Source: a virus
Taxonomy: Duplodnaviria; Heunggongvirae; Uroviricota; Caudoviricetes
Virus record (IMG/VR): IMGVR_UViG_2526164646_000006
Strand: one strand, 5' to 3'
Length of the DNA stretch: 23,456 nt
Shown: one piece after another, positions 1 through 13,913 of the stretch
Numbering within the stretch: the stretch's first letter is position 1
How the letters are laid out: each line of letters opens with the position of its first letter
Translations under genes and position numbers: made by a program
Notes under the pieces: generated by a model
The model's database searches: none
Seen by the model: the letters and a program-made list of their open reading frames with translations, nothing else
Told to the model about the DNA's origin: nothing

Positions 1-206
1 CGATAACCATACGTGGGCAGCTCTCCGATAACATGGTGTATACGGAGAAGCACATCCGTATCATCAGTGTGACGACTGCGGCGGCCATCCATCCAGTCAT
101 CGGTTCGTCTGAGAATGACGTGCAACTGCGCACGCGACACCCGGAGACAACGGCTGACTAAGCTTACTCCCCATCCCCGGGCAATAAGGGCGCGTGCGCT
201 ATCCAC
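1..206 (-). CDS. insD: IS2 insD (orfB transposase), 5' portion only, cut by window edge
   Basis: Minus-strand translation from GTG at 206 reads [38 protein letters not shown]..., -1 frame relative to insC. Confidence 0.8.
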
Positions 207-528
207 TTTTTTGCCCGTCCATATTCAACGGCTTCTTTGAGGAGTTCATTTTCCATCGTTTTCTTGCCGAGCAGGCGCTGGAGTTCTTTAATCTGCTTCA
301 TGGCGGCAGCAAGTTCAGAGGCAGGAACAACCTGTTCTCCGGCGGCCACAGCAGTAAGACTTCCTTCCTGGTATTGCTTACGCCAGAGAATAACTGGCTG
401 GCTGCTACACCATGTTGCCGGGCAACGAGGGAGACCGTCATCCCCGGTTCAAAGCTCTGCTGAACAATTGCGATCTTTTCCTGTGTGGTACGCCGTCTGC
501 GTTTCTCCGGCCCTAAGACATCAATCAT
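164..528 (-). pseudogene. insC: IS2 insC (orfA) split across two reading frames by an apparent 1-nt deletion
   Basis: ORF 298-573 carries the InsC N-terminus ([13 protein letters not shown]...ASQLF) and ORF 164-349 the C-terminus (...[12 protein letters not shown]...PGDGE) in a different frame; the junction lies near 381-396. Confidence 0.7.
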
Positions 529-616
529 CTGTTCTCCAATGACTAGTCTAAAAACTAGTATTAAGACTATCACTTAAATAAGTGATACTGGTTGTCTGGA
601 GATTCAGGGGGCCAGT

Positions 617-1216
617 CTAGACCTTTAATGCCTCATAGAAGCAACCTTTCAGATTGTTGAACTGACGCCCATTTAGCAGGCCGTGTTCAGTCAGCATGTT
701 GTGTAATTTCCATGCCGCGTCGTTTACTTCGCTGGATGACAGGGGAGGCAACTTGTAAGTTTGGCTTACAGTTTCGGCACCATGAAGCATGGCGTCGCTC
801 CGCTCTATGCCATCCAGCGCGATTCGCAGTGCCTGAATTGTGGTAGAGCTATCGTTTGGGGCTATTCCATATCGCTCGAATACAGCTAAATGGTTGCGCA
901 TAATCTCAGGCGTAAGCTCTTTGTAAGCATAAGCAAGAGGCTCTGATGCATTATCCGGCACAACCGACGCAGGCGCGGCAGCATAAACAGGAATAACGTC
1001 CGCTTGCTCTTTATTGCTTTCATCCGTTAAAGCCCAGAATAATTTCCCGGCAGGATGTTTGAAAATATAAGCAACTGGTTCTGCTTCCAGCGATGCCAGA
1101 GCAATTCGTGCCAGTTCTTCCGCTTCTTCTGCTGGCAGTTCAACGTTGCTACCAGGTCCGTATGTTTCGCGCCACTGCTTGATTGTCAGTAGTCGCTCTT
1201 TGGTCATAGTGGTCAT
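617..1216 (-). CDS. hypothetical phage protein (199 aa) whose stop codon is supplied by the first 3 nt of IS2; probably C-terminally truncated
   Basis: ATG at 1216 directly after the upstream stop with AAGGAGAG RBS; ORF ends with TAG at 617-619, which is the start of the IS2 terminal repeat. Confidence 0.6.
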   Translation of the reverse strand: MTTMTKERLLTIKQWRETYGPGSNVELPAEEAEELARIALASLEAEPVAYIFKHPAGKLFWALTDESNKEQADVIPVYAAAPASVVPDNASEPLAYAYKELTPEIMRNHLAVFERYGIAPNDSSTTIQALRIALDGIERSDAMLHGAETVSQTYKLPPLSSSEVNDAAWKLHNMLTEHGLLNGRQFNNLKGCFYEALKV

Positions 1217-1217
1217 A

Positions 1218-1946
1218 TCACTCTCCTTTGATGCGAAAGCCAGCTGCGCTTGCTGATTCTTCATATGCGCGTTTAGCAGCGTTAAGGATTGCTGCCAGTG
1301 GCGTATAGCCGCCATCCATTCGGATTGTGTTGTGGATGCCAGCCATTGTGTTGCGCAATTTTCTGTGGCTAGCAGACAGTTCTGCTATGCGCTTCTCTGC
1401 GGCTTCCAGCTTCTCGCGCATATCGTCAACGTACTCGACCAGAGAACCGCCAGCAGGAATTTCGCACTCCTCGACCAGTTGGAAGTAGATATCAGCTGCG
1501 GCCCGTGTGTTGCTATGCCTAGCGTCGCCCATCTCACCTTCACGAAGAGCATCGCGTTCGGCGGTAAGATTGGCTATTTTGCTGTCTTTGCCTTCCAGCT
1601 CAACGCGCAGCTTCCCTACCGTTAGCGCAATTTCCTCGTTCTCCTGATCGCGGCGTTTTATGTATTGCTGGTTTCTTTCCAGCTCATCCAGCAGTGCCAG
1701 CACGGTAGCTGGACTGGCTGCGGCGATGAATTCAGCATTGGCCTGCTGTTCCATTTGGAAATCTTCATCGAAACCGCTTTCAGGATGCGCTCCTTCAATT
1801 CTGCAAATGGGAATATATCCAGCAGCCTCGCGATGAATTAGGGCATCATCACCATCAAATCGGCTCTCTCCATATTCGAGCGACCACTCACCACACGTTG
1901 CTTTCTCTGCCTTGGCACGCAGTGCCTGATAGTCAATCTTGCTCAC
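1218..1946 (-). CDS. coiled-coil protein, possibly Ead/Ea22-like
   Basis: GTG at 1946 preceded by AGGAGG with 7-nt spacer; 242 codons; coiled-coil rich; family assignment from recall only. Confidence 0.5.
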   Translation of the reverse strand: MSKIDYQALRAKAEKATCGEWSLEYGESRFDGDDALIHREAAGYIPICRIEGAHPESGFDEDFQMEQQANAEFIAAASPATVLALLDELERNQQYIKRRDQENEEIALTVGKLRVELEGKDSKIANLTAERDALREGEMGDARHSNTRAAADIYFQLVEECEIPAGGSLVEYVDDMREKLEAAEKRIAELSASHRKLRNTMAGIHNTIRMDGGYTPLAAILNAAKRAYEESASAAGFRIKGE

Positions 1947-2166
1947 TGTTTGCCTCCTTTGCTCGCTGATTCCACTCTGCTCTAACCTCTGAATAAAAAA
2001 TCGCGCAGTCATTTCCAGGCGCTGCATATTTGCTACCAGATTGAGCGCGACACGTACCGCATCGAACGAAATAGAATCGACCGCCAGAGCCATATTCAGG
2101 GTGATCTGCTTCGCTGGCAACGTGCGCTGCACCGCCACAGAATGGACATGGTAGTAGGTTGCTCAT
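1933..2166 (-). CDS. Lar-family restriction-alleviation-like small zinc-ribbon protein
   Basis: Translation [12 protein letters not shown]...CGTC... with paired Cys motifs; start ATG overlaps upstream stop as ATGA at 2163-2166. Confidence 0.55.
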   Translation of the reverse strand: MSNLLPCPFCGGAAHVASEADHPEYGSGGRFYFVRCGTCRAQSGSKYAAPGNDCAIFYSEVRAEWNQRAKEANSEQD

Positions 2167-2723
2167 GAATGCACTCCCTTGTGAAGCTGTTCCGCACAAT
2201 GCAGCAGGGCGTCAGTCGCCTCTTTCACCGTAACGCAGTCGCCATCGTCCAGCCCGGACACCGACGCGTGCTTAACGAACGCCGCGCAAAGGTCATCAAA
2301 CGCCTTAGCCCGGACTTCAGTCAGGAAAGCATCGGTGGCTGGGGTGTCTGATTGCATAGACTTTGCGCGATAGTCATTCCACCCTCTTGCATACATGGGA
2401 TTAACTTGCACTCCATCTTTTACGCAATATGCCTGCCCTCCACGGTTGATAACCTTGATTTCGTCCATAGCGCCAGACTTCAGCCCCGCATTCTCCGCTG
2501 CCAGTGCCGAAAACTTCTCGTGTGCCAACTTAACAGCCGAATCAGCCTGCTTAATTGACTCAATCGCTTTCTGTTGGTCTTCGGCCAGCGCCAAAATCTT
2601 GGCCTCCGCTTCAGCAAATTTACGCACCAGATATTCAGCGTTTGTTTCGTTAACATTTAAATCTCGTGGGATGCATTTACCTTTCAGAAAACCATCCATC
2701 TCAATTAGTGACATTTGTTTCAT
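2163..2723 (-). CDS. hypothetical protein (186 aa)
   Basis: Open frame starting [11 protein letters not shown]...; ATG overlaps upstream stop (ATGA at 2720-2723). Confidence 0.6.
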
Positions 2724-2902
2724 TTCTTCCCACTCCGCCACATCGCATTCAGATATTTGTTTTGATTCACTGATGGAAACGAGTTTCGCTTAAGCAATTC
2801 CTCTCTCGATGGCATTGGCTTTACGCGTTGGCGAATAATCATTTCTGCCGGAAGAATGCCGGGATTGTATGCAAGTCCTCTCATGGTAAATTCCTCAGTC
2901 AT
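2720..2902 (-). CDS. small hypothetical protein (60 aa)
   Basis: ATG at 2902 overlapping end of upstream gene; no clear RBS; likely translationally coupled. Confidence 0.35.
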
Positions 2903-3191
2903 TACTGATAGCGCCATAGCGTGATCGATAATTACGCAGACGCGGGTCGATATATTCAGGGAAGTGGGTATATGTGGCTTTGCGGAATGGTCGGATTGAT
3001 GTCTGGTAAATTCGCTCGCGTTCTTCTTTCTCTGCAAGCCATATACAGTGGCGAAATTCCTTTTCCTCTTTCGTTTCCTGCGGTAGCGACATTATCCGAT
3101 CGTAGTTTTTTCTGAATTTATCCAGCACCTCCGATACGGAATTGCCGGAACAGCGGCGCGGGTCATCCGCACCATACAGAGGCGCTGGCAT
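2895..3191 (-). CDS. hypothetical protein (98 aa)
   Basis: ATG at 3191 with AGGAG RBS 6 nt upstream. Confidence 0.55.
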
Positions 3192-3207
3192 GTTTTTCTC
3201 CTGTTGA

Positions 3208-3756
3208 TTATTTAGCTAACTTTTTCCAGATCGCTGAAACGTATTTGGCTTGGTGAATGGCATCATCAAGAGCGTTGTGGCGAGTTCCTTTGAATGGCAT
3301 ATCTCGCTTAGGGTCGAATCCTATTGCCTTCCCAAGTTCGACGATTGTTCTTACGTCGCGGTCATTCCACCACTGCCACGGAACTGGCTGCCCTGTCAGC
3401 GAATAACTGTTGCGGAGAATAACGCAGTCAAATGATGCTCCATTCCCCCAAACCTGAACGAATTTGTGGTTAGCGTTCTTTATGATGAATTCAGATAACC
3501 ATGAAAGAGCCGTTGAAAGCTCCTGAGTGTTGCTGGTTAGCGATTTCCTGGCTTCTTCACTCTGTTCCAGCCACCATAAAATCGTTGAAGCGTCAGGACG
3601 CGCTCGATATCGCATTGATGATTCAAGCGAGATATTTACCGAGAACTCTTCTCCTGTTTCTCCGGTATTCGGGTCAAAGAATACCGCCCCAATAGAAATA
3701 ACTGGCGCGTATGGCCCGTTGCCCATTGTTTCAAGGTCAACCATCAAGTGATTCAT
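3208..3756 (-). CDS. DnaQ-like DEDDh 3'-5' exonuclease
   Basis: Motifs DLETMG, FD and HNALDDA in the translation; sits beside SSB and the annealase. Confidence 0.75.
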   Translation of the reverse strand: MNHLMVDLETMGNGPYAPVISIGAVFFDPNTGETGEEFSVNISLESSMRYRARPDASTILWWLEQSEEARKSLTSNTQELSTALSWLSEFIIKNANHKFVQVWGNGASFDCVILRNSYSLTGQPVPWQWWNDRDVRTIVELGKAIGFDPKRDMPFKGTRHNALDDAIHQAKYVSAIWKKLAK

Positions 3757-3764
3757 GTAAGTCC

Positions 3765-4280
3765 TTAAATTGCGTGAATAGCGTGACGAGGGAAGGGGAG
3801 AGTTACTGGTGCAAAGGGGATATCGTCGTCAAAATCCATAGGTGGTTCGCTGTGATTTCCCTGCTGCTGAGGTTGCTGTCTTTGTTGCTGACCATTATTT
3901 CGCTGAGGTGAAGACTGTTCATTGCCTCCTTGCTTGCCACCAAGCATTTGCATGGTTCCACCAACGCCCACGATGACTTCGGTAGTGAACCGATCCTGTC
4001 CGCTTTGATCCTGCCATTTTCTTGTCCGCAATTTGCCTTCAAGATAAACCTCAGAGCCTTTTCGCAGATATTCGCTGGCAATTTCTGCCAGTTTCCCGCT
4101 CATTACCACGCGGTGCCACTCCGTCTGCTCCTTTTGCTCTCCAGTTTTCTTATCACGCCATTGTTCTGACGTAGCAACGGTAAGGTTTGCAAATGCCGTT
4201 CCTGATGGTGAATATCTGATTTCTGGATCATGCCCAAGGCGACCAATAATGATCACCTTATTTACGCCTCTGCTTGCCAT
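3765..4280 (-). CDS. ssb: single-stranded DNA-binding protein with 15-residue extension after the DDDIPF tail
   Basis: OB-fold SSB N-terminus, Gly/Gln-rich linker, [10 protein letters not shown] followed by [15 protein letters not shown] before the TAA at 3765-3767. Confidence 0.9.
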
Positions 4281-4988
4281 TTATGCCGCCTGTTTTAGTT
4301 CGTTAACTCTGATGTTCATTACCTGAACGCATTTAGCCTGCGCCTCCTCGTTGCCAGCCATTAATTGCCAGTCACGCTGATAACGCTCGATGAGTTTTTT
4401 CTTGTCAGTTTCTGTTGACGCATAATCGCTGAAGTCTTTCAGGATTTGTTCGCAGTCAACCGATGGAGATTTCTGGTTGGTATTTTCTGGTGATGGTTTG
4501 TTATCTGATGCTGGGATTGCCCATCCCGGCAGCGATGGAGGGAGCCAGTAAAATCCTGTTCCATCCTTGAGTTTTGCCCTGTGCCATCCCTGCTTTTTAT
4601 CGAGAGATGTTTGTGCAAAACCTTCCTCAAGGTTATACAGATACCGACCGATCCCCCACTGAACGGCAGCGCGCTTCATTGCACCGGAACGACCACCTTT
4701 GACGGCTTCTACCTGCGTGTTTTCAGCAGCATCCCATTTGGTTACCCATTCGGAATCAATCCTGATTGATATGCCGCATTCAACGCCTCCGTTGTTGGGA
4801 ATATCGCGGTATTCATTGCGCCATCCTGCTTTGCCGCAAACATCGTCCAGGCGTTTCATGATTGCCCGGTTCGTGACATAAGCCAGCACCATAGCCCACA
4901 CTTTGCCATCGCGTGTTTTACCGCTTTGCTGTATTCGCCATTCGATATCTTCAGGGCTGAATGGCTTATCGAATTTATTCAAATCCAT
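4281..4988 (-). CDS. Rad52/22-family single-strand annealing recombinase
   Basis: 235 aa; central region resembles Rad52-type annealases; GAGGTGA RBS; stop abuts ssb start. Confidence 0.65.
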   Translation of the reverse strand: MDLNKFDKPFSPEDIEWRIQQSGKTRDGKVWAMVLAYVTNRAIMKRLDDVCGKAGWRNEYRDIPNNGGVECGISIRIDSEWVTKWDAAENTQVEAVKGGRSGAMKRAAVQWGIGRYLYNLEEGFAQTSLDKKQGWHRAKLKDGTGFYWLPPSLPGWAIPASDNKPSPENTNQKSPSVDCEQILKDFSDYASTETDKKKLIERYQRDWQLMAGNEEAQAKCVQVMNIRVNELKQAA

Positions 4989-5087
4989 AATTCACCTCAG
5001 AATGGACATGGCCCAAGGAAATAACGCTGGTTTAATACTTCGACTCTGGACAAATTAAGGCATACCCGCATTCCTTCGCGGTCACCA

Positions 5088-5246
5088 TTATGGCGATACC
5101 AGAGAGCTTTCTGCGTGTACATGCGTCTCTGTAACTTGCTCTCCTTCACTGTGGTTGCAAGTGACATGAATATCTCCTTCGTTACCGATTAATTCTTTCA
5201 TATGACGAATGAATTCTTCGTCTGACCAGTTATCTGTAAAACTCAT
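5088..5246 (-). CDS. small hypothetical protein (52 aa)
   Basis: ATG at 5246 overlaps the Kil-like stop (ATGA). Confidence 0.3.
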   Translation of the reverse strand: MSFTDNWSDEEFIRHMKELIGNEGDIHVTCNHSEGEQVTETHVHAESSLVSP

Positions 5247-5395
5247 TTCCTGCGACACCACGGAAGGTTGATAGCTGATTTCATCGCTTTATTTGCTTCA
5301 AGCCACATTTTTGAATCACCAATAAATCTGGCTATTACTGCTTTGTTCTGTGCAGCACGAAGCATCTGATGATTTATGGCTATTTCATTGCGCAT
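5243..5395 (-). CDS. kil: Kil-like small protein (50 aa)
   Basis: Translation MRNEIAINHQMLRAAQNKAVIARFIGDSKMW... with position immediately downstream of cIII. Confidence 0.45.
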   Translation of the reverse strand: MRNEIAINHQMLRAAQNKAVIARFIGDSKMWLEANKAMKSAINLPWCRRK

Positions 5396-5511
5396 AATAA
5401 GACCTCAACTCTTTTCCATCCGTCACGTAATTTACGGGTGATTCGTTCAAGTAAAGATTCATTTAGTTGGAAGGCACCCATGCGAGCGCCTCCCGCGATT
5501 GCGTAAATCAT
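5380..5511 (-). CDS. cIII: CIII-like small protein (43 aa)
   Basis: Contains ESLLERITRKLRDGWKR, matching the lambda CIII core as recalled; AAGGAA RBS. Confidence 0.7.
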   Translation of the reverse strand: MIYAIAGGARMGAFQLNESLLERITRKLRDGWKRVEVLLCAMK

Positions 5512-5535
5512 GGGTGGTTCCTTATGTTGGTTTTA

Positions 5536-6504
5536 TTAGTAGGTTATTTTTGTTGCGAATACTTCGCCTTTTACGATGGCTGTTATGATATTTTTAGCAA
5601 CATCTTCTGATGCACCAACCTTGATAAGGTCAGCAAGTATTTTGTTATTTACTTCTTTCCGGTGAGCTTTATCCTTTGCTCTACGCTCTTCTTCTTCCTT
5701 GATTCTTTTTTCTTCTGCTATTCTGGCTTGCTCTTTTGCTTCAGCATCGCGACGGATTCGTTCAGCCTCCTCCTGTGCTTTTCTGCGTTCTGCTTCAATT
5801 GCTGCCTGCTTTTCTCTTTCAGCTCGTTCTGCTGCCTCTTTTGCTTCGCGCTGTGCTCGCTGCTCGGCTTCAATGCGTTCACGCTCTGCACGTTCCGCTG
5901 CGGCCTTAGCTTCTGCTTCTCGCCTTGCTGCTGCTTCAATTTCGGCTTTTGCCTTTGCTTCGGCTTCTGCTCTGGCTTTCTCTTCAGCTTCTCTTTTTAA
6001 GCGTTCTTCATGCTCTCGCTTTTCCTGCTCCGCTTTGAGTCTTGCCTCTTCTCTTTGGCGGTCAAATTCGCGATCCATCAAAATAGCTATTTCATGGTCA
6101 GACTCAATTTGCTTTGCGAGAGCTTCAGCTGCTGCCTTAGCTTCTTCTTCGGCTTTAATCCGCGCCTGTTCTTCCTCATAATCAGTAAGAGGCTGGCGCG
6201 CCTTGGCTTTCAGTTCATCAAGGCGATCGCGCACTGTCTTGCGGTTAGCATCAATTAGCTTTGGAATTTCCTTCAGTTCAGCAACAAGGTCTTTGCCAAG
6301 ACCATCGAGATATGTTTTCGTCTGCGCAACTTTATACGCCAGAGAAGCGATCTCCTTTCTGCCCTTTGCCGTTGTGATATCAGGCACAAAGGACATAACT
6401 TCACGTTCAACCTTTTGAAGGATTTCTTCAATCTGGTCGGCAGACTGAAATACAGTCATTGCATTTGCTTTTTCAATAACAACTAAATCTGTTACTTCAC
6501 TCAT
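5536..6504 (-). CDS. charged coiled-coil protein with E/A/K/R-rich low-complexity core (322 aa)
   Basis: ATG at 6504 with GGAGGA RBS; long AEAKAKAE/ERAERE repetitive segment. Confidence 0.6.
   Translation of the reverse strand: MSEVTDLVVIEKANAMTVFQSADQIEEILQKVEREVMSFVPDITTAKGRKEIASLAYKVAQTKTYLDGLGKDLVAELKEIPKLIDANRKTVRDRLDELKAKARQPLTDYEEEQARIKAEEEAKAAAEALAKQIESDHEIAILMDREFDRQREEARLKAEQEKREHEERLKREAEEKARAEAEAKAKAEIEAAARREAEAKAAAERAERERIEAEQRAQREAKEAAERAEREKQAAIEAERRKAQEEAERIRRDAEAKEQARIAEEKRIKEEEERRAKDKAHRKEVNNKILADLIKVGASEDVAKNIITAIVKGEVFATKITY
5607..6117 (-). repeat. imperfect short tandem repeats encoding the E/A/K/R-rich segment
   Basis: Recurrent gcttctgc/ttcggcttc-type units on the plus strand; produces low-complexity shadow ORFs in other frames. 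Confidence 0.5.
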
Positions 6505-6514
6505 ATATCCTCCG

Positions 6515-6545
6515 TCAAAAAAATTGCCCTCACACTGGAGGGCAA
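6515..6545 (-). terminator. intrinsic terminator just upstream of the coiled-coil gene
   Basis: Minus-strand 8-bp stem (6524-6531 / 6538-6545) with 6-nt loop followed by a U-run (plus-strand A-run 6515-6523). Confidence 0.5.
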
Positions 6546-6679
6546 AGAAGATTTCCAATAATCAGAACAAGTCGGCTCCTGTTTAGTTACGAGCGACATT
6601 GCTCCGTGTATTCACTCGTTGGAATGAATACACAGTGCAGTGTTTATTCTGTTGTTTATGCCAAAAATAAAGGCCACCG

Positions 6680-6880
6680 TCAGGCAGCCTTGTTGTTCAG
6701 TTTACCAAGTTCTCTGGCAATCATTGCCGTCGTTCGTATTGCCCATTTATCGACATATTTCCCATCTTCCATTACAGGAAACATTTCTTCAGGCTTAACC
6801 ATGCATTCCGATTGCAGCTTGCATCCATTGCATCGCTTGAATTGTCCACACCATTGATTTTTATCAATGGTCGTAGTCAT
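6680..6880 (-). CDS. ral: Ral restriction-alleviation protein
   Basis: 66-aa translation MTTTIDKNQWCGQFKRCNGCKLQSECMVKPEEMFPVMEDGKYVDKWAIRTTAMIARELGK matches lambda Ral as recalled. Confidence 0.9.
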   Translation of the reverse strand: MTTTIDKNQWCGQFKRCNGCKLQSECMVKPEEMFPVMEDGKYVDKWAIRTTAMIARELGKLNNKAA

Positions 6881-6950
6881 ACGGATAGTCCTGGTATTGT
6901 TCCATCACATCCTGAGGATGCTCTTCGAACTCTTCAAATTCTTCTTCCAT
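6864..6950 (-). CDS. small acidic ORF (28 aa) between N and ral
   Basis: MEEEFEEFEEHPQDVMEQYQDYPYDYDH; stop overlaps ral start. Confidence 0.4.
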   Translation of the reverse strand: MEEEFEEFEEHPQDVMEQYQDYPYDYDH

Positions 6951-6958
6951 ATATCACC

Positions 6959-7285
6959 TCAAATAAGTGGTTTGCTGCCTAATTTCATTTTCTGGCGACC
7001 AACACAAGTCACACCCATTTCACTGCGTGGCTTGCTGTACCATGTGCGCTGATTCTTGCGCTCAATACGCTGCAGGTTGCTTTCAATCTGTTCGTGGTAT
7101 TCAGCCAGCACCGTAAGGTCTATCGGATTCAGTGCGCTTTCTACTCGTGATTTCGGTTTGCGATTCAGCGAGAGAATAGGGCGGTTAACTGGTTTTGCGC
7201 TTACCCCAACCAACAGGGGATTTGCTGCTTTCCATTGAGCCTGTTTCTCTGCGCGACGTTCGCGGCGGCGTGTTTGAGAGTCCAT
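6959..7285 (-). CDS. N: N transcription antitermination protein
   Basis: 108 aa; MDSQTRRRERRAEKQAQWKAANPLL... arginine-rich motif and near identity to lambda N as recalled; GAGGA RBS. Confidence 0.95.
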   Translation of the reverse strand: MDSQTRRRERRAEKQAQWKAANPLLVGVSAKPVNRPILSLNRKPKSRVESALNPIDLTVLAEYHEQIESNLQRIERKNQRTWYSKPRSEMGVTCVGRQKMKLGSKPLI

Positions 7286-7326
7286 ATATCATCCTCAGAT
7301 AAATGGCCCCTCAGCGGGGCCGACAG

Positions 7327-7455
7327 TTATTGGCAGGTTGCGTACTTGCTGATGCAGGAGAAGATTTCCACGATTCGCGTCATTGTTGTTTCAGGACGCT
7401 TTGCTTCATCACGCATTGACTTCAACCAAGCCATAAAGTGTTCGTTATGTTTCAT
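7327..7455 (-). CDS. small ORF (42-44 aa) in the N leader
   Basis: ATG at 7455 six nt after AGGAG (second ATG at 7461); ends 40 nt before N. Confidence 0.3.
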   Translation of the reverse strand: MKHNEHFMAWLKSMRDEAKRPETTMTRIVEIFSCISKYATCQ

Positions 7456-7473
7456 GTTCATCTCCTGTCAGTT

Positions 7474-7703
7474 AGCTTTGGTGGTGTGGTGGCTGGTAGT
7501 CTAGCTCCAGCTTGTTGAGTCTCATTCGGAGGGGTATAACCGGCACCCCAGCGATTTTTCCATGCGACAACGTGCGCGTTATGGCGGCCTTATCGCCCGC
7601 GGCTCCCCATCTCGTCCACGCTATTGCTAGCGTTGGGAGCGCTTCACCGCTCAACAGTAGGTAAGCACTTGCCAGTGACTAGCTGGCTTCACCACACCCC
7701 AAA
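7474..7703 (-). promoter_or_regulatory. N-leader long-range inverted repeat, candidate RNase III-type regulatory stem
   Basis: About 30-nt imperfect inverted repeats at 7474-7510 and 7668-7703 enclosing a GC-rich segment with local hairpins. Confidence 0.45.
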
Positions 7704-7722
7704 GCCTTCTGCTTTGAATGCT

Positions 7723-7752
7723 GCCCTTCTTCAGGGCTTAATTTTTAAGAGC
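7723..7752 (-). promoter_or_regulatory. nutL (boxA + boxB)
   Basis: Minus strand reads GCTCTTAAAAATTAA then GCCCTGAAGAAGGGC. Confidence 0.85.
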
Positions 7753-7797
7753 CTCACCTTCATGGTGGTCAGTGCGTCCTGCTGATGGCTTAAAATT

Positions 7798-7865
7798 ACA
7801 AGAAAGATTGTATGTTGTAAACAAGAAATATTGTAAAAAGGGGCGTGAAAAACAAACTCCATTGT
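7798..7865. promoter_or_regulatory. OL operator cluster / pL region (434-type ACAA-N6-TTGT sites)
   Basis: ACAAGAAAGATTGT 7798-7811, ACAAGAAATATTGT 7821-7834, ACAAACTCCATTGT 7852-7865. Confidence 0.65.
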
Positions 7866-7914
7866 TTTTAAATGAAAAATAGTTTGTTTTTGGTTATCGA
7901 GATTGAGGTGGGGA

Positions 7915-9267
<1,353 letters not shown>

Positions 9268-9275
9268 GACATTCC

Positions 9276-9307
9276 CGCTCTTACACATCCCAGCCCTGAA
9301 AAAGGGC
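9276..9307 (+). promoter_or_regulatory. nutR (boxA + boxB)
   Basis: CGCTCTTACA at 9276-9285 and GCCCTGAAAAAGGGC at 9293-9307. Confidence 0.8.
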
Positions 9308-9383
9308 ATTACCAGAAACAAATCTCTATGGTTTTGCGTTTCTTTGCGAAGCCAACTCTATCTAATCATTAAGGAAATTATCT

Positions 9384-9665
9384 ATGGGTACTATTGCAAC
9401 TAAAAGCAAGAAAGCGGCTCGCATCGAGTCAGCCTTGCTGAACAAACTGGCACTGATGGGGCAGAAGACATTCGCTCGAGCAATGGGGGTTCCTGAATAT
9501 CAGGTAAGCCGATGGAAGAATGGTTTCTTCTCGCAGGTAAGCATGATGCTTGCTGTTCTGGAATACGGAATCGAAGACGATGAAATGGCTGAATTGACTA
9601 AGCGGCTTGCCGATTACCTGACAAAAGAAAAAGCCCCGAAGAACGGCGAATTCTTCGAGGCCTAA
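9384..9665 (+). CDS. cII: CII transcriptional activator
   Basis: [11 protein letters not shown]...SRWK...[10 protein letters not shown] resembles lambda CII; AAGGA RBS. Confidence 0.9.
9621..9661 (-). terminator. possible oop-type antisense terminator at the cII 3' end
   Basis: Minus-strand 11-bp stem with one mismatch (9633-9643 / 9651-9661) followed by a U-run (plus A-run 9621-9632). Confidence 0.4.
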
Positions 9666-9699
9666 TGTAGAAAGACTGGATCAATCCACGGGAGTAATT

Positions 9700-9846
9700 A
9701 TGACAAAACAACTCAGTCCTTACCAGGACAAAATTCACAAACACATACTACGTGATCGCTTCCTGTCCAGCTTCAAGCAGCATGGTCGATTCCGGGCTGA
9801 GTTGGAAAAAGTGAAGCTGATGCAGAAGGAGAAAGGTCATGAGTAA
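9700..9846 (+). CDS. small ORF (48 aa) overlapping the O start
   Basis: ATG at 9700 preceded by GGGAG; basic peptide. Confidence 0.4.
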
Positions 9847-10675
9847 TCTTGCAACCGTAACACATTTAAGGCCTTCACAACGGCCTGTGGAGCGTCGTGT
9901 GGCAGAAGTTGAAGATGGTTATACCCGTCTTGCAAATGCCCTGTATGAAGAGCTTATCGGCGCAGATTTAACGAAAAATCAGAGCAAGGTTGCCCACGCC
10001 ATATGCCGTAAAACATACGGCTACGGTAAAAAGATGGATCGCATCTCTGATAGTCAGTTAGCTCAAATTACCAGGCTGCCAAGACAGAAGGTAAACAAGG
10101 CCAAGAATGAGCTTATCGCGATGAAGGTTATCCTTCGCGAAGGCCAGCAAATCGGGCCTAACAAGAACATCGAGGAATGGCAAATAGAAGGGTGTCACTA
10201 CTCTGGTGATAATGTCACTGCATTGGTGACAAAAAGTGTCACCAAAACAGGGACACACAAAAGAAACTATTACAAAAGAAAAAGAAATAATAAAAACACT
10301 ATGTCCGAAAGTGTTCGGACGGAGTGTGAAAAATCACATGACCGTCACGAAGAAACCGACAAGGCATTCGAGGAAATATTCTGGTGTGCAGGCATGCGGA
10401 AAGCCGGGAAGAAAAACGCAGCTTCGGCATTCAGAACACAGTTCAGGGAATGGCGTAAAACTACCAGGGGTACGGCAAGCGAGTTTGCCACGATGCTGGC
10501 AGAAGACATCGCATGCAGGAATGGTAAGCAGTTCGGATTCGACAGGTTGTTACCATCGAGCTACCTGAACGGTCAACGCTGGAACGACGAGAAGCCAGAA
10601 ACTATTCAACCACAATCCAAACCATCATCCGCAATCACCGTATCGAAAACTGGCTACGTGTTTTTCGACAGGTGA
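9839..10675 (+). CDS. O: replication initiator, lambda O-like N-terminal domain with an unrelated C-terminus
   Basis: N-terminus [13 protein letters not shown]...[32 protein letters not shown] resembles lambda O; iteron-like repeats lie inside the gene. Confidence 0.85.
10190..10300. other. putative replication origin: TGTCAC-N6-GTGACA-type iterons plus AT-rich tract
   Basis: Three palindromic ~18-bp units at 10193-10256, AT-rich run 10257-10300, inverted repeat 10303-10320. Confidence 0.5.
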
Positions 10676-10782
10676 ACCATGAAATCAAAAATCAAATCGC
10701 TACTGGTTGCTGGTTATAACCACGGCTGGTTAAGTATTTCGTTTGTCGATTTCTGGTTTAAAAATCTCAATCTGAGGGAATC

Positions 10783-12309
10783 ATGACGCCAAGTGAACTT
10801 AGCGACCTGCTTTGGGCGCAGGTTGACAGGGTGGCTCCGCACCTGTTGCCAAACGGCAAGAAAGAGGGGCATGAGTGGGTTGCCGGTAACGTCAATGGTG
10901 ACAAGGGAAACAGCCTTAAGGTCAACCTTAGCGGCAAGAAAAAATGGGCTGATTTCGCTGAGGGAGACGGCGGTGACATGCTTGATTTGTGGATGGCATG
11001 TCGTGGAATTAACCTGCATCAGGCTATGCAGGAAGCGAAAGCATTTCTCGGTATCAAGGATGACGATCACCATTTCGATGCCAAACGTGAGAAAAAATTC
11101 TCCAGACCTGATCGCAAGAAAATCGCCCGCTACGTTACCAGAACAGAATCCCATCTTGAGTACCTGCAATCGCGTGGCATATCGCCAGAAGTCGTAAAGC
11201 GCTACGAGGTTGTCAGCGGCAAGGTGTGGAATGGAGAACGAGAACTTGATGCACTGGTGCTTCCGTACAAACGCGATGGTGAGTTGTTGCAGGTCAAGCG
11301 AATCAGCACTGAGCGCCCGGACGGGAAGAAAGTCATTATGGCAGAAGGTGATTGCGAACCTTGTCTGTTCGGATGGCAGGCTCTGGACGCTGGCGTGAGG
11401 GCGGTTGTACTTTGCGAAGGCGAAATTGATTGTATGAGCTATGCGCAATACGGCATCTCGGCGTTATCCGTGCCGTTTGGTGGAGGGAAAGGCGCTAAGC
11501 AACAGTGGATTGAGTTTGAGTACCACAACCTCGACAGGTTTGAGGAAATATTCATCTCGATGGACGTTGATGATGTTGGTCGTGAAGCCGCAAGGGAAAT
11601 CGCAAGCCGACTCGGTGAACATCGTTGCCGTCTTGTTACTCTGCCGTACAAAGACATCAACGAATGCCTGATGAACGGTGTTACCGAGGATGAAATCTGG
11701 CAGTACATCGGCACGGCATCCTACTTTGATCCTGAAGAACTCTACAGCGCGCGAGAGTTTTACCAGGACACTATCAACGCTTTCTACGGCAAGCAGCAGT
11801 ATCTGTTTAATCCACCGTGGGAATCTCTGGCAGATAAATTCCAGTTTCGTGAGGCCGAGTTGACGCTGGTCAATGGTGTGAACGGTCACGGAAAAACGGA
11901 GGTTGTCGGGCATATGGCACTTGAGGCAATGCGTCAGGGTGTGAAGACGTGCATCGCGTCACTTGAGCTGAAGCCTGGTATTCTCCTTAAGCGCCTTACC
12001 CGTCAGGCGACGTGCTGCAAGATGCCGCCAGTGCTGGAAATTGACTCTGCATTTAAATTTTATGACGAAAGACTTTGGGTGTTTGGCCTGACTGGAACGG
12101 CGAAAGCCGACAGGCTGATCGAAATATTCGACTACGCTCGCCGCCGATACGGCATCCAGTTATTCATCATCGACAGCCTGATGAAATGCGGCATAGGTGA
12201 CGATGACTATAACGGGCAGAAAGCATTTGTTGACTCGATTTGTGACTTCAAAAACAAACAAACTCCCACGTCATTCTCGTTACTCACTCCAGAAAAGGAG
12301 ATAGCGAAG
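10783..12309 (+). pseudogene. bifunctional primase-helicase (Toprim + SF4 RecA-fold helicase, T7 gp4-like), 5' portion; frameshifted near 12262-12268 and cut by IS911
   Basis: Toprim motifs CEGEID...DVDD; Walker A GVNGHGKT; Walker B LFIIDSL; downstream motif [11 protein letters not shown] is only readable in the -1 frame. Confidence 0.85.
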
Positions 12310-12350
12310 TGAAGTGGCACACTGAATTTGGCCACCTGAACAGAGGTGAT

Positions 12351-13549
<1,199 letters not shown>

Positions 13550-13557
13550 CCACTTCA

Positions 13558-13913
13558 AAGAAAAACCAACCGGGAAAATGGACGTAAAAGGCTCTGGAGC
13601 GATAACAGACCTGACAGACAACCTTTTTATCATCTGGCGTAACAAGGCTCGCGAGAGAGCGTTACAGAGAGTTCAGAGTGGTGAAAAGATGTCAGAGAAG
13701 GACGAACAGCTACTGGCATCTCCGGCATCTGTTTTGATGCTTGAAAAACAACGTAACGGCGAAGGTTGGGAAGGTGGTGTCCCGTTGTTCCTTGACGAGC
13801 AATCGCACCAGTTCCTGCAACTTGAATCAGGATCGCCTTATAGCTACATCGCCAATATGCCGAAATCGGAATATGACGAGGCGTGGCGACAGGAAAACGT
13901 GACGGAGTATTAA
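13558..13913 (+). pseudogene. primase-helicase 3' portion (helicase C-terminal motifs) downstream of IS911
   Basis: EKPTGKMDVKGSGAITDLTDNLFIIWRNK...LEKQRNGE aligns with the gp4/DnaB helicase H3/H4 region and joins the pre-insertion frame across the duplication. Confidence 0.8.

Follow-up and report, generated by a model that had tools for sequence, protein, structure and literature searches.

The window, that is, the whole 23,456-nucleotide stretch of DNA analyzed here (IMG/VR record IMGVR_UViG_2526164646_000006), is the entire draft contig AGRC01000012.1 of assembly GCA_000281795.1 and derives from a Shigella flexneri prophage; the part of the contig that was fetched for comparison (L005) is the reverse complement of window positions 1-11216. 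By sequence the prophage is Sf101/Sf6-like and belongs to the P22-like phages (Lederbergvirus); 53% of the window matches phage Sf101 at 98% identity, and 41% matches Sf6 at 97.5%. The genes run in the order ea genes, abc2, recombination genes, kil, cIII, N, cI, a cro-like gene, cII, O, primase-helicase and nin, followed by Q, lysis genes, gp3, terminase and portal, and the window ends before further virion genes. Rfam and tRNA scans of the window found no RNA genes. The following features lie at its left end:

Positions 1-619, minus strand: left 619 bp of IS2, recognized by near-identity to other IS2 copies; the remainder lies beyond window position 1
Positions 164-528, minus strand: orfA of this IS2
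From about position 206 and off the window end, minus strand: start of orfB of this IS2
Positions 389-390, minus strand: 1-nt homopolymer shortening in IS2 orfA, AA where the two other IS2 copies compared have AAA
Positions 617-1216, minus strand: truncated gene of 199 codons plus an IS-supplied stop, the 5' two-thirds of a mosaic ea-region gene whose intact form has about 294 amino acids and a C-terminal DUF551
Positions 617-619, minus strand: TAG stop of the truncated gene, made up of the first three IS2 bases at the left end of the element (read directly)
Positions 620-624, minus strand: one copy of the target-site duplication, AGGTC on the gene strand (gacct on the plus strand), coding for the final K-V residues
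Positions 1218-2138, minus strand: gene for an Ead/Ea22-like protein, the upstream neighbor in the same leftward early operon, with its stop 1 nt before the start of the truncated gene

The element at the left end is IS2. Window positions 1-619 have thousands of E. coli matches at 98-99% identity whose records bear the annotation "IS3-like element IS2 family transposase," and differ from the IS2 of the finished S. flexneri chromosome CP026792.1 by a single 1-nt indel over the 619 bp (99.8% identical). Positions 573-619, read as ...ctggttgtctggagattcagggggccagtcta, are the reverse complement of TAGACTGGCCCCCTGAATCTCCAGACAACC, the left terminal repeat of IS2; the beginning of that repeat, TAGACTGGCCCCCTGAATCTCC, occurs as its reverse complement at 590-619, the same end is found in CP026792.1, and the tip of the left inverted repeat, TAGACTGG, can be read directly at window position 619. 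The preliminary description of this DNA placed the other IS2 junction outside the window, and indeed the window contains only the first 619 bp of the element; it starts inside IS2 because the draft contig breaks in this multi-copy sequence. The products of the corresponding IS2 genes match the Pfam families HTH_Tnp_1 and rve, and in the CP026792.1 copy these domains lie in ORFs of 121 and 301 amino acids, respectively. A "programmed frameshift" is annotated by RefSeq on the IS2 of E. coli strain 205; in the window, orfB is partial and orfA is broken. The run of A's at 389-390 (plus strand) has two members in the window and three in the IS2 copies of CP026792.1 and of E. coli strain 205, so that orfA of the window copy is frameshifted after ...AASQLF. 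This shortening may be a draft-assembly or sequencing error, since the contig has several other homopolymer indels, and these several 1-nt differences from its relatives may likewise be errors of draft sequencing. If the frameshift is real, the window IS2 copy is transposase-defective.

The gene to which IS2 is joined starts with the ATG at 1214-1216, one base past the TGA of the Ead/Ea22-like gene; this start is preferred to one at 1315 because it is preceded by a Shine-Dalgarno motif (AAAGGAGAG) and agrees with the starts of homologs and with public gene calls. A 232-aa ORF that begins at 1315 was rejected, as it lies inside the Ead/Ea22-like gene. Gene callers applied to public assemblies give the same 199-aa product. 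That this gene ends in a TAG at 617-619 made of the first three bases of IS2, as first described, is borne out by direct reading; predicted translation ends right after Val199, with zero IS-encoded residues in the product. The in-frame TAG is uninformative in itself, since IS2 begins with TAG and in this orientation will give a stop in one of three frames. A Pfam search with the 199-aa product matched no family, PF04448 (DUF551) included; PHROG 6847 and PHROG 60, both annotated as of unknown function, match it.

Uninterrupted alleles show what the gene looks like without the element. E. coli 2017.15.01CC carries an IS-free allele that is 99.5% identical to the window over positions 620-1400; its insertion point reads ...ttgcgcattgc gacct ttaatgcc..., with gacct present once only. 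In this strain and in plasmid pTB423 the empty site reads AAAGGTCGCAATG, and the target AGGTC is again single-copy. Past the junction the E. coli protein continues as ...EALKV/AMRNYPVTQDSW...PLPEPPL (in a longer view of the ORF, ...FYEALKV/AMRNYPVTQDSWISCSERMP...THWMPLPEPPL), 95 residues beyond the last residue of the window product. In the intact protein, Pfam assigns DUF551 (PF04448) to residues 210-293 with a score of 43.4 bits; the homolog on pTB423, annotated as a 275-aa DUF551 protein, runs across the insertion point and scores 76.7 bits against the same family. A 281-nt probe with the insertion site at its position 142 matches 278 E. coli genomes (most of the matches cover probe positions 69-281), and the matches listed are annotated as DUF551 protein genes. 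In addition, 30 phage records gave alignments that span 80% or more of the intact 294-aa protein, those listed covering residues 1-293. IS-free homologs thus read straight through the site into about 95 more codons that carry DUF551, and the DNA surveys of these 278 E. coli genomes and 30 phage records found no homolog that ends at ...EALKV without an IS, which is the case that would have spoken against the original proposal. By comparison with these alleles the window gene is a domain-less remnant of a DUF551 gene. The notion that 199 amino acids is a natural short form, IS2 having landed just past a native stop, is conceivable in principle given the mosaicism of ea-region genes, but it deserves practically no credence and is refuted by the empty-site sequences: the TAG belongs to IS2, the 99.5%-identical allele has no stop there and reads on into DUF551, and the probe across the site matches 278 E. 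coli genomes, with DUF551 protein genes annotated at the matches listed.

In mosaic ea-region proteins, for example the V2 variant of Ea22 and YfdS, DUF551 is known as a portable domain at the C-terminus (PMC10834534; PMC4776307). The intact allele is built in the same manner as Ea22 V2 of Stx phages and YfdS of the cryptic prophage CPS-53, with a variable N-terminal part followed by a C-terminal DUF551 (PF04448), and it sits between recombination genes and xis in the mosaic portable-domain pattern described in those two reports; the window product differs from these modular proteins in being entirely without DUF551. In E. coli 2017.15.01CC, RefSeq splits the continuous 294-codon ORF (positions 2713-3597 of L001) into a "partial" DUF551 pseudogene and a separate 77-aa DUF551 protein, which looks like an annotation artifact of a mosaic gene.

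The junction itself is not peculiar to this contig. An exact-protein look-up finds the identical 199-aa product in 18 contigs on record, and all five of those that were fetched have the junction ...AAAGGTC/TAGACTGGCCCCC; three short-read contigs with the identical junction end 18-26 nt into IS2. A nucleotide search found the junction in no complete E. coli genome, and a search for the exact 34-nt junction among GTDB species representatives returned nothing. That the contig ends in a repeat and has several homopolymer indels resembling sequencing errors might raise the suspicion of a chimeric contig end created by a collapsed multi-copy IS, but an assembly artifact of this kind has a vanishingly small probability and is refuted by the occurrence of the same junction in independent short-read assemblies and in a finished genome.

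That finished genome, CP026792.1, is S. flexneri 61-4982, which is listed as serotype 4b in a published strain table (PMC9455713). Over 11.2 kb only 3 positions distinguish it from the window, and it contains the second IS2 junction. In CP026792.1 (L004 numbering) the gene ends ...GCATTAAAGGTC/TAGACTGG with IS2 starting at 10598; the element occupies 10598-11928 (1331 bp), its right end reads ...GGGGCAAATCCA, and the flank beyond it is AGGTC GCA ATG CGC AAC.... The two copies of AGGTC, at 10593-10597 and 11929-11933, constitute a perfect 5-bp duplication, so the inspection of the other IS2 end and its target duplication that the preliminary description recommended gives a 1331-bp IS2 with AGGTC on both sides. 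Downstream of IS2 lie a 94-aa ORF with DUF551 (PF04448), an eag-like gene and then a 66-aa torI-like excisionase gene; E. coli 2017.15.01CC has identical versions of the last two, and there the excisionase is annotated as TorI. Removal in silico of this IS2 together with one AGGTC gives an open 294-codon gene. Because AGGTC flanks IS2 on both sides and the 94-aa DUF551 fragment follows it, the C-terminal coding part, as read in this genome, is displaced by 1336 bp and not deleted. The earlier suggestion that the native C-terminus has been replaced by the insertion is supported, with one refinement: the C-terminus is missing from the product, as the IS-free alleles that read on make clear, but its coding part lies intact beyond IS2 in CP026792.1 and has not been replaced. 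Given the near-identity of the two sequences, the strain from which the window comes probably has the same far junction.

This far junction also bears on the idea that IS2 marks the endpoint of a deletion or rearrangement, by which the 3' part of the gene, and perhaps the end of the prophage, were lost from the strain that supplied the window. In Shigella genomes, IS copies are the sites of heavy rearrangement, the window stops within IS2, and the far junction is outside it. The near-identical complete genome, however, has the 5-bp duplication at both junctions, followed by the 3' fragment of the gene, eag and xis, and we regard such an endpoint as very improbable.

Farther along in CP026792.1 (L004 12830-12960), the E. 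coli prophage end ceases to be matched 82 bp past the torI-like gene. Directly adjoining this point is a gene for a PapD-type fimbrial chaperone, which may be a 5'-shortened yraI, and then comes an IS-interrupted usher gene; in the E. coli relative, the prophage is flanked there by a gene for an oligosaccharide MFS transporter. The prophage boundary in S. flexneri 61-4982 may thus be rearranged or a different one.

It is very probable, then, that the locus is the product of a single simple IS2 transposition into the coding sequence of an accessory gene, with an in-frame TAG and with the DUF551 part stranded beyond the element. IS2, an IS3 family member with a DDE transposase (OrfAB), would have moved by its copy-out and paste-in route through a circular intermediate into a non-essential accessory gene that lies between the Ead/Ea22-like gene and eag/xis in the leftward early "ea" region, and its 5-bp target AGGTC would have been duplicated on insertion. 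IS2 is oriented as the gene, and its leading TAG lies in frame, so that predicted translation stops straight after Val199; the remaining 95 codons, which hold the whole DUF551 domain, are left 1336 bp downstream on the far side of IS2, as read in CP026792.1. The disrupted gene is presumably functionally inactivated, and with a 1.3 kb element in the operon, eag and the torI-like excisionase gene downstream of it may be transcribed less. The insertion probably represents neutral decay of the kind typical of the IS expansion in Shigella.

Two readings assign more than a simple knockout to the insertion, and both are unlikely. One is that the insertion was selected and is not neutral: separating the excisionase gene from the early leftward promoter, IS2 would damp excision and so help to fix the prophage in the lineage. 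IS2 insertions in operons are classically polar; the order of ea genes, IS2, eag and torI-like xis at the prophage end is the appropriate one, and the insertion is common to 18 contigs as compared with one for the IS911-truncated product discussed below. Common descent explains such sharing equally well, however; the N-mediated antitermination of lambdoid phages may read through IS2, and a consensus scan of the IS2 copy in CP026792.1 revealed no terminator-like site within it. The other reading, to which we would give an equally small chance, is that the 199-aa module, the DUF551 fragment or both are expressed with altered activity, or that IS2 exerts a polar block on the excisionase that locks the prophage in an S. 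flexneri lineage. As DUF551 proteins are modular (PMC10834534), an active N-terminal product of 199 aa is still conceivable. The DUF551 fragment retains the native Met201 ATG, 8 nt past IS2 and with an AAGG motif 5 nt upstream; a consensus scan of the IS2 right end in CP026792.1 for a hybrid outward promoter that could drive the fragment found none.

The proposed simple transposition is a routine and already-known kind of IS-driven gene disruption in a Shigella prophage. It shares with the known gene-disrupting insertions of IS2 (IS3 family) in E. coli and Shigella the element itself, its 1331-bp length, the termini TAGACTGG...AATCCA, the 5-bp duplication, and orfA and orfB with their HTH_Tnp_1 and rve domains. 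It is particular only in its target, a DUF551 ea-region gene of an Sf101/Sf6-like prophage, and does not differ in kind; the window copy also has the 1-nt orfA frameshift, which is possibly a sequencing error. E. coli strain 205 (NZ_CM132944.1, L002 positions 2285-3625) provides an independent case, in which IS2 has the same orientation relative to the gene and is flanked by the 5-bp duplication CTTCC. The target there is a mosaic ea-region gene that has its N-terminal approximately 45 residues in common with the window gene; site and frame are different, the ORF running 15 codons into IS2 with the TAG out of frame. There are, accordingly, two separate IS2 insertions in this ea gene family, one in the window's lineage and one in E. 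coli strain 205. The value of the window case lies mainly in annotation: the leftmost gene of the contig is a pseudogene fragment made by IS2, and a single disrupted DUF551 gene should be annotated in place of separate 199-aa and 94-aa ORFs. With 18 contigs on record, the IS2 junction could also act as a lineage marker.

A second IS3-family element lies in the replication region of the prophage, where the features are:

Positions 10783-13913, plus strand: Toprim/helicase replication gene (homolog of Sf101 gp45, 626 aa), split by IS911 into 10783-12309 and 13561-13913
Positions 12310-13557, plus strand: IS911, 1248 bp, in the primase-helicase gene; its ends were read, and the IS911 annotated in phage Sf6 matches it at 99.8% identity
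Positions 12307-12309 and 13558-13560: 3-bp target duplication AAG of IS911, read on both flanks

The ends of IS911 in the window are TGAAGTGG...CCACTTCA, and its removal in silico gives the Sf101 gp45 gene save for two substitutions and one 1-nt deletion in an A-run. The AAG duplication and the restored gp45 gene corroborate the report of an IS911 in the helicase gene, and the splitting of that gene should prevent phage DNA replication. The two IS3-family insertions agree with the initial view of the prophage as IS-colonized and probably defective, with the qualification that, within the window, it is only the helicase disruption that speaks for "defective." Two such insertions in one prophage accord with the IS expansion and the decay of prophages that are well documented in Shigella. 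IS911 looks to be the younger insertion, because the truncated helicase product is on record in one contig only (the one studied here) and the gene call for the primase-helicase in CP026792.1 is 626 aa.

A TGA at 12310-12312 was considered as a second in-frame stop supplied by an IS, this time IS911, and was rejected: it comes into frame only through the 1-nt A-run deletion at about 12255, some 55 nt upstream. The native helicase frame runs on into IS911, and the TGA ends only a shifted 509-aa ORF. The start of orfA in this IS911 reads ATGAAAAAAG, a frame that gives M-K-K-E-I-L, and the neighboring IS911 frame is the one that the native helicase frame enters. Canonical IS911 is presumably 1250 bp long with one more A in the run at the orfA start.

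Replication gene O (window positions 9839-10675) is an intact 278-aa ORF in the window. It was compared with positions 430-1378 of the CP026792.1 sequence (L004); the gene calls in CP026792.1 and a Logan contig give a product of only 150 aa, and there is a 1-nt T difference in the stretch (position 934 of the fetched contig part, L005). The replication module may thus be damaged at different places in different members of the lineage, or their sequences may contain different errors. The IS911 of Shigella phage Sf6 is likewise an IS3-family element resident in a P22-like phage and is nearly the same in sequence as the window copy (see the feature lines above), but it lies in the nin region by a ninG-like gene, whereas the IS911 of the window splits the primase-helicase gene.
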